Virus record (IMG/VR): IMGVR_UViG_2706794691_000011
Strand: one strand, 5' to 3'
Origin: a virus
Taxonomy: Duplodnaviria > Heunggongvirae > Uroviricota > Caudoviricetes
Length of the DNA stretch: 5,423 nucleotides
Part shown: one piece after another, positions 1,880 through 2,129 of the stretch
Position numbering within the stretch: position 1 is the stretch's first letter
How the letters are laid out: every line of letters starts with the position of its first letter
Made by a program: the position numbers and the translations under genes
The notes under the pieces: model-generated
Told to the model about the DNA's origin: nothing
The model's input: the letters and a program-made list of their open reading frames with translations, nothing else
Databases searched by the model: none

Positions 1880-1956
1880 TGGCGCGTTGTACTGGATTCG
1901 AACCAGTGACCGATTGCTTAGAAGGCAATTGCTCTGTCCGGCTGAGCTAACAACGC
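1880..1956 (-). tRNA. argO: tRNA-Arg, anticodon UCU (reads AGA)
   Basis: Manual cloverleaf, 77 nt: acceptor GCGTTGT/ACAACGC, D-arm GCTC..GAGC, anticodon loop CTTCTAA, T-arm ACTGG-TTCGAAT-CCAGT, discriminator G, encoded CCA. Confidence 0.9.
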
Positions 1957-1969
1957 ATGATGCAGATAA

Positions 1970-2046
1970 TGGACCGCCATCGGGGACTTGAACCCCGCGC
2001 AGCCAGCTTCGAAGGCTGGCGCTCTTTCCTGATGAGCTAATGGCGG
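1970..2046 (-). tRNA. argN: tRNA-Arg, anticodon UCG (reads CGA/CGG)
   Basis: Manual cloverleaf, 77 nt: acceptor CCGCCAT/ATGGCGG (unusual C1-G72), anticodon stem CCAGC/GCTGG, loop CTTCGAA, T-arm CGGGG-TTCAAGT-CCCCG, encoded CCA. Confidence 0.85.
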
Positions 2047-2053
2047 TATGTGA

Positions 2054-2129
2054 TGGTGGCCCTTGCTGGATTTGAACCAGCGACCTGGCGATTATGAGTC
2101 GCTCGCTCTCACCACTGAGCTAAAGGGCC
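2054..2129 (-). tRNA. ileZ: tRNA-Ile2 (anticodon CAU, lysidine type, reads AUA); anticodon alone would also fit tRNA-Met
   Basis: Manual cloverleaf, 76 nt: GGCCCTTTAGCTCAGTGGTGAGAGCGAGCGACTCATAATCGCCAGGTCGCTGGTTCAAATCCAGCAAGGGCCACCA. Closely resembles E. coli ileX as I recall it; anticodon loop CTCATAA. Confidence 0.9.

Follow-up and report, generated by a model that had tools for sequence, protein, structure and literature searches.

The ileZ-argN-argO tRNA unit, a probable rare-codon operon of a lambdoid Escherichia prophage

The DNA analyzed here, a 5,423-nucleotide stretch of a Caudoviricetes virus record (IMG/VR IMGVR_UViG_2706794691_000011) that we refer to as the window, contains the known ileZ-argN-argO rare-codon tRNA unit of lambdoid prophages. 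This identification is correct but ordinary, as the unit is already known. We consider it very likely that the unit is an autonomous tRNA operon that a lambdoid Escherichia prophage carries in its late region and that serves the codons AUA, CGA/CGG and AGA/AGG. The finding restates a familiar idea, namely that prophages bring tRNAs for the AUA, AGR and CGR codons that are overused in their own genes and in horizontally acquired ones.

Gene content and layout

By ARAGORN, the window holds three tRNA genes and no more. All lie on the minus strand, in the same direction as the Q and methylase genes, and their anticodons along that strand are CAU, UCG and UCU, in that order. They are ileZ, a gene for tRNA-Ile2 with anticodon CAU (2054..2129, minus strand); argN, a gene for tRNA-Arg with anticodon UCG, for CGA/CGG (1970..2046, minus strand); and argO, a gene for tRNA-Arg with anticodon UCU, for AGA/AGG (1880..1956, minus strand). 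Against the Rfam tRNA model, which has a gathering score of 29, they score 72.5, 58.0 and 70.1 bits, respectively, and all three encode their CCA ends. Both tools call the trio that the original prediction had named, with the same anticodons, though ARAGORN labels the CAT gene 'Met' because lysidine is not predictable by that program. Beyond tRNA, no Rfam family reaches its gathering score in the window; a match to 'Plastid-ycf2' on the strand opposite ileZ falls far under its gathering score and was rejected as spurious.

The coordinates also bear out the tight spacing that had been claimed. The methylase frame ends with a stop codon at 2170, leaving 40 nt (2130-2169) up to ileZ; a 7-nt spacer (2047..2053, minus strand; ATCACAT, then A at position -1 of argN) separates ileZ from argN; a 13-nt spacer (1957..1969, minus strand) separates argN from argO; and a terminator-like hairpin begins 14 nt after the last tRNA gene.

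Seven N-masked runs, 1789 nt in total, interrupt the window (493-756, 816-1108, 1456-1678, 2718-2988, 3035-3278, 3304-3547 and 4672-4921). The tRNA unit itself (1838-2169) is free of them, and the flanking genes are partly hidden. Because of these runs, long reading frames in mechanical ORF lists are artefacts; an ORF of 338 codons at 2618..3634 was discarded on this ground, as masked runs contain no stop codons. Owing to the masks, no complete E. coli genome covers 80% of the window.

Promoter and terminator

The tRNA unit is predicted to have its own promoter and its own terminator. A consensus scan returned a single sigma-70-type promoter, TTGAAG and TATTAT separated by 17 nt, at 2139..2167 on the minus strand, which corresponds to the 'pT' of phage 933W. 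The -10 sequence TTATTAT is invariant in 56 of 56 three-tRNA loci, and the TTG 17 nt upstream of it persists in loci whose DNA beyond this point has nothing in common, some relatives having a different gene there and others, like 933W, the tR' hairpin itself. A G+C-rich stretch, GCGGCTCCC, lies between the -10 element and the 5' end of ileZ, and host tRNA promoters likewise have a G+C-rich stretch between the -10 element and the tRNA 5' end. In the Stx2a prophage of strain Sakai, a primary transcription start driving the tRNAs has been mapped by dRNA-seq (PMC7547250).

Downstream of argO, a scan, folding and alignment to 933W together point to an intrinsic terminator at 1838..1865 on the minus strand, consisting of a 7-bp G+C-rich stem, a TTTT loop and T8. 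The hairpin, GGCTCGC-TTTT-GCGGGCC followed by T8 at 1865..1848 of the minus strand, starts 14 nt past argO and has a folding energy of -13.8 kcal/mol (z = -4.15), which was not matched by any of 200 shuffles. Its stem is kept in relatives, its loop varies among TTTT, TTCG, TACG and TTTG, and the aligned relatives part ways just past the T run. What had been proposed as a terminator 14 nt after the last tRNA gene is a hairpin with T8 and a conserved stem.

Conservation of the unit

Of 5426 complete E. coli genomes, 3061 carry the 332-bp unit, with as many as 13 places in a single genome, and the NCBI pipeline annotates it as tRNA-Ile plus two tRNA-Arg. Nucleotide diversity, computed on the 56 true three-tRNA loci only, is 0.0019 for ileZ, 0.013 for argO, 0.069 for argN and 0.126 for the terminator. 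Among the spacers, that between ileZ and argN is nearly invariant in relatives (0.010), and that between argN and argO is variable (0.19), the variable spacers together ranging over approximately 0.19-0.23. The low diversity of the tRNA genes compared with the variable spacers suggests purifying selection.

An alternative array is present in 14-16 of 120 IMG/VR contigs, in which the same invariant ileZ is followed by Lys-UUU, Thr-UGU and Gly-UCC genes with spacers of 1, 2 and 3 nt. The Lys-UUU gene of these Ile2-Lys-Thr-Gly arrays uses the argN chassis (C1-G72, U73), and one IMG/VR contig has the argN chassis with a UCU anticodon.

Identity of the CAU gene

As judged from its sequence, the CAU gene is a tRNA-Ile2 gene and not a tRNA-Met gene. 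It is identical to K-12 ileY at 70 of 76 positions (92%), and metT/metU, metZ and the initiator tRNA-Met diverge from it throughout the acceptor and anticodon stems. The lysidine synthetase TilS requires C4-G69 and C5-G68, and the TmcA determinants of elongator tRNA-Met are C27-G43, C30-G40 and G44 (PMC2500205). Both TilS determinants are present in ileZ, and all three TmcA determinants are missing, with A27xC43, G30-C40 and A44 in their place. An elongator or initiator tRNA-Met was accordingly ruled out for the CAT gene by the sequence together with the TilS and TmcA determinants. TilS would be expected to convert the ileZ anticodon to lysidine-AU, which reads AUA. For annotation, this means that the CAU gene should read tRNA-Ile2; ARAGORN and many phage records mislabel it as tRNA-Met.

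Compared with host ileX and ileY, ileZ shares the CUCAUAA anticodon loop and an identical acceptor stem, including C4-G69 and C5-G68. It differs in carrying G26/A44 for A26/U44, G for U at position 20 and A for G at position 59, and in having A27xC43 where the host genes have a G27.U43 wobble pair, a change by transitions on both sides. The A27xC43 combination (window 2109 for position 27 and 2093 for position 43) is flagged as non-standard by the Rfam alignment and is also found in 933W ileZ; the double transition from G27.U43 could preserve wobble geometry. These differences from the host are fixed in all 120 IMG/VR copies, a biased sample in that the search pattern itself required part of the sequence. 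Across 185,579 species with one genome each, the exact phage-type ileZ anticodon arm appears only in Escherichia and Shigella, plus two metagenome bins.

The argN gene and its acceptor end

The argN gene of the window is intact. Each of its 21 stem pairs is of the Watson-Crick type; it adopts a perfect cloverleaf as its fold of lowest energy (-35 kcal/mol); and it has U8, A14, G18-G19, A20, A21, U33, the T-loop TTCAA and a CCA end. The single-sequence minimum-energy folds of ileZ and argO are non-cloverleaf; these folds were given no weight, since both genes fit the cloverleaf in their covariance-model alignments.

What sets argN apart is a combination of C1-G72, U73 and U15/G48. The K-12 Arg tRNAs that we compared all have G1-C72 and a purine at position 73, none having C1-G72 or U73, and C1-G72 among the K-12 genes compared is confined to tRNA-Pro. 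The original prediction had singled out this first acceptor pair as unusual: the pair is real and can be read directly from the sequence and the Rfam alignment, but it is not special to the window copy, being the norm for argN and kept in 33 of 34 distinct argN-type variants. Position -1 is an A in all 60 UCG copies examined.

Both argN and argO carry A20 and C35 together with G36 or U36 (G36 in argN), the ArgRS identity elements A20, C35 and G/U36 that McClain and Foss in 1988 and Tamura et al. in 1992 are said to have defined. The host-like combination of a purine at position 73 and G1-C72 is found in argO (G73, G1-C72), not in argN (U73, C1-G72), and the anticodon loop of argO, CUUCUAA, is the same as that of host argU. 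Position 73 and the G1-C72 pair form a minor ArgRS identity element in E. coli. The U73 and C1-G72 of argN may, therefore, lower but would not exclude its charging by ArgRS.

This atypical acceptor end, together with the fate of argN in relatives, raises the question of whether the gene is a decaying or non-functional passenger kept only through its linkage to selected genes on either side, in which case the unit would effectively supply Ile2 and Arg-UCU only. An ArgRS substrate would not typically carry U73 and C1-G72, and argN has the lowest Rfam score of the three genes (58 bits) and is 5-fold more diverse than argO and 36-fold more diverse than ileZ. In 16 of 56 copies, the stems of argN contain the mismatches A52xC62 and A6xA67. 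All that lies between ileZ and argO in approximately 31 of 120 arrays is an 80-107-nt remnant of argN, and E. coli 300709 shows the same. The window copy, however, belongs to the intact class, with the fully paired stems, clean minimum-energy cloverleaf and complete set of conserved tRNA positions described above. The diversity of argN remains approximately threefold below that of the variable spacers, and across the 34 argN-type variants 96.6% of stem cells pair, a level reached by no shuffle. Compensatory double changes are seen at three pairs (7-66, 27-43 and 30-40), all of which distinguish the Arg-UCG form of the chassis from the Lys-UUU form. We thus regard the passenger explanation as unlikely: decay is plausible for many relatives, not for the intact window copy, and argN is under constraint, but a much looser one than ileZ and argO.

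The same gene invites a more speculative proposal, which we hold to be quite improbable, that argN belongs to a tRNA chassis private to phages, which lambdoid phages equip with one anticodon or another (UCG, UUU and once UCU). If true, its acceptor end could point to unusual 5' maturation, with the purine at -1 pairing with U73 to give an 8-bp acceptor stem like that of tRNA-His; it could mean altered charging; or it could mean escape from host nucleases that target tRNAs.

Extended to the whole unit, the last possibility becomes an anti-defense explanation, in which the phage copies are spare tRNAs that differ enough from those of the host to escape cleavage and so keep translation going when the cellular tRNAs fall to a nuclease of the host or of a competitor. 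Nucleases of this type include colicin D, which targets tRNA-Arg, and PrrC or PARIS, which target tRNA-Lys. Phage T5 tRNA-Lys reportedly neutralizes PARIS, which would be a precedent, and argN is unlike every host Arg tRNA at C1-G72, U73 and U15/G48, its chassis also appearing with a UUU (Lys) anticodon in the alternative arrays headed by the same ileZ. Yet the anticodon loops, the usual site of cleavage, are identical to those of the host in the other two genes (CUCAUAA in ileZ as in ileX/ileY, CUUCUAA in argO as in argU), so ileZ and argO would not escape an anticodon-loop nuclease, and ileZ is 92% identical to host ileY overall. Moreover, the anticodon set (AUA, CGR and AGR) is the one classically associated with rare codons and does not match the known targets of such nucleases, and argN, the most host-unlike of the three genes, is also the one most often lost. 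Taken together, we find anti-defense a highly improbable purpose for the unit and favor rare-codon supply. The argN chassis, with its C1-G72, U73, purine at -1, fast evolution and swapping of anticodons, is the only mildly unexplained item.

Flanking DNA and cargo

The unit lies downstream of Q, pR' and tR' and upstream of the cargo and lysis region. Q occupies 3774-4595 on the minus strand, and 81 nt past its stop codon a tR'-like hairpin, AACCCGCCGCCGAGCGGGTT, is followed by T (3674-3693, minus strand). In some IMG/VR relatives, the same hairpin stands directly before the tRNA promoter, which suggests that the 65-codon ORF and the methylase gene of the window were inserted between tR' and the unit. 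Holin and lysozyme genes follow in relatives; the lysis genes lie outside the window.

The methylase gene (2170-3034, minus strand) is visible as an N-terminal fragment at 2989-3034, WLDQCLAQFWRVLKP, and a C-terminal part at 2170-2715, which are in different frames. The two lie 20 nt closer together than they do in the E. coli 300709 locus (L002) and in a second relative (L003); there is either a frameshifting deletion under the mask at 2718-2988 or masking that does not preserve length.

On both sides, the unit abuts DNA that changes from one relative to the next. Among IMG/VR relatives, the 300 nt before the promoter comprise 10 classes of unrelated sequence (112 loci), and the 300 nt that follow the terminator comprise 9 (81 loci). 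Homology to Stx2a phages stops at approximately window position 1840, just past the T-tract, and because it breaks there the tRNA cluster does mark a mosaic boundary, at the edge of the cargo hotspot, as had been proposed.

These junctions bear on whether the tRNA genes serve mainly as recombination anchors or integration targets for the exchange of cargo such as stx, with decoding as a secondary role. A conserved island between mosaic junctions, Stx-phage homology that ends immediately past the terminator and an ileZ that is almost invariant among otherwise mosaic phages would all be compatible with such a role. The break, however, comes after the terminator T-tract and not in a tRNA 3' half, where integrase insertion would put it, and the readable window contains no duplicated tRNA 3' fragment and no flanking direct repeat; the junction is thus more suggestive of mosaic exchange, either homologous or illegitimate, than of insertion by an integrase. 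The conserved promoter, the intact cloverleaves and the identity elements indicate, in addition, selection on the RNAs themselves. An anchor role is compatible with decoding and is no replacement for it, and that anchoring is the main purpose of these genes strikes us as very doubtful; we retain rare-codon decoding as the function of the unit.

The cargo that follows is not stx. No stx gene is present in the readable window, and the masked runs downstream (223, 293 and 264 nt) are too short for the 1.24-kb stxAB; only a short stretch that lies downstream of stx2B in Stx2a phages reappears, at window 1746-1836. Among IMG/VR relatives, stx2A follows the unit in only 8 of 81. With neither stxA nor stxB directly behind the terminator, the element in the window has an arrangement of the Stx-phage type but should not be classified as an Stx phage. 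The tRNA unit reliably indicates where the variable cargo region of lambdoid prophages, which houses stx and other morons, begins; taken by itself, it does not mark an Stx phage.

In the window, an STnc100-type sRNA comes directly behind the terminator, and the rest of the cargo comprises an unannotated segment and an IraM-like gene. The STnc100 match is partial, running from window 1659-1803 on the minus strand into the mask at 1456-1678, and scores 45.5 bits against a gathering score of 47 (E = 4e-8); E. coli 300709 has a full 132-bit match (6019-6208 of its locus), and the window copy is cut by the mask. Two conserved segments follow the tRNAs, A (1844-1679) and then B (1455-1109), and in E. 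coli 300709 and several IMG/VR relatives their order is B then A; one relative (L037) has A in two copies. Segment B, 347 nt long and 99-100% identical in relatives, has no RefSeq gene, yet a 117-codon ORF with a TTG start runs through it. The start of an IraM-like anti-adapter gene (MKWIVID...) is found at 470-492 on the plus strand, leading into the mask at 493-756; its strand is opposite to that of the late genes, as in E. coli 300709 (6234-6569 of its locus).

Proposed function

In the model that we favor, the operon would have the block of Q antiterminator, pR', tR' and methylase on one side and, on the other, the variable cargo ahead of the lysis genes. Transcription of ileZ, argN and argO would start from the sigma-70 promoter of the unit (2167..2139) and end at the hairpin at 1865..1848. 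Because the unit has its own promoter and terminator, the tRNAs could be made in the lysogen. Upon induction, Q-modified RNA polymerase starting from pR' would read through tR', the methylase gene, the tRNA genes and the terminator into the cargo and lysis genes, such that tRNA supply would rise together with late-gene expression.

RNase P would cut the precursor at each 5' end, and the 7- and 13-nt trailers would be trimmed back to the encoded CCA. TilS would then convert C34 of ileZ to lysidine, giving a tRNA that would be charged with Ile and read AUA, and ArgRS would charge argN (for CGA/CGG) and argO (for AGA/AGG). In this way, the unit could relieve a translational bottleneck at five codons that are rare in E. 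coli and two to five times commoner in phage and cargo genes. We infer the promoter activity of the window copy, the processing route, the charging and the benefit to translation.

Codon usage supports this classical rare-codon-supply explanation. ATA, AGA, AGG, CGA and CGG together account for 35-51 per 1000 codons in the readable window genes (51 in Q) and for 87.5 per 1000 in stx2A, in which ATA makes up 15 of 20 Ile codons; in K-12 codon tables the same five codons come to approximately 17 per 1000 for E. coli overall. The size of the benefit is uncertain because, in a published comparison, the codon adaptation of lambdoid phages was neither better nor worse when these tRNAs were present (PMC4631060). 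CGA is barely used, at 0-3 per gene counted, so argN would mainly serve CGG, which is already read by host argX. Being lost or disrupted in approximately one-quarter of related arrays and mismatched in 16 of 56 others, argN appears to be at least partly dispensable.

Comparison with known units

Alignment to sequenced Stx phages, for which AP012536 and 933W were used, shows matching ileZ, argN and argO genes. In the Stx2a phage AP012536, where the gene names are annotated, ileZ and argO are identical to those of the window and argN is identical at 73 of 77 positions, its four differences all lying in the D and T loops. Stx2a phages of this type also have a 65-codon ORF and a DNA methylase gene between tR' and the unit, as the window does.

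The unit of 933W (NC_000924), which was reportedly described by Plunkett et al. in 1999, aligns with window 2175-1830 at 95% identity from promoter to terminator and shares with it the three genes, their order and their strand relative to Q. The 933W record lists, in order, pR', qut, two terminators, 'pT; putative tRNA promoter', ileZ, argN, argO, a terminator and stxA2B2. Window 2167..2139 aligns base for base with pT, a 29-nt feature, and the window hairpin aligns onto the 'possible rho-independent terminator upstream of the stx genes'. The ileZ genes are identical; argN is 94.8% identical, with four differences (three loop positions and T-stem position 63); argO differs at position 37; and the first spacer is 9 nt in 933W and 7 nt in the window. 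The surroundings differ: 933W has the unit directly after tR' and stxA2B2 behind it, whereas in the window tR' and the unit are separated by a 65-codon ORF and a DNA methylase gene, and the cargo is not stx.

Prophages without stx resemble the window as well. In non-Stx lambdoid prophages of E. coli (for example, FDAARGOS_1059 and phage PhiR49_2), the unit and the 3' end of the methylase gene are 97-99% identical to those of the window, and the 7- and 13-nt spacers and the sequence right after the terminator are the same; other cargo lies further downstream, a DUF6645 gene in one and a short ORF and then a holin gene in the other. The original prediction had matched the ileZ-argN-argO layout to lambdoid/Stx phages and called it the Stx-phage arrangement. 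The match to AP012536 and 933W stands, but the layout is not specific to Stx phages and is general to lambdoid prophages.

Finally, the unit resembles the morons of lambdoid phages described by Hendrix and colleagues, in which a promoter, a gene and a terminator are inserted between conserved phage genes. The tRNA unit likewise has its own predicted promoter and terminator, is placed between the conserved modules for Q and for lysis, and comes and goes among phages regardless of what its neighbors do. It differs in its payload, three tRNAs instead of a protein gene, and in being far more conserved than typical morons.
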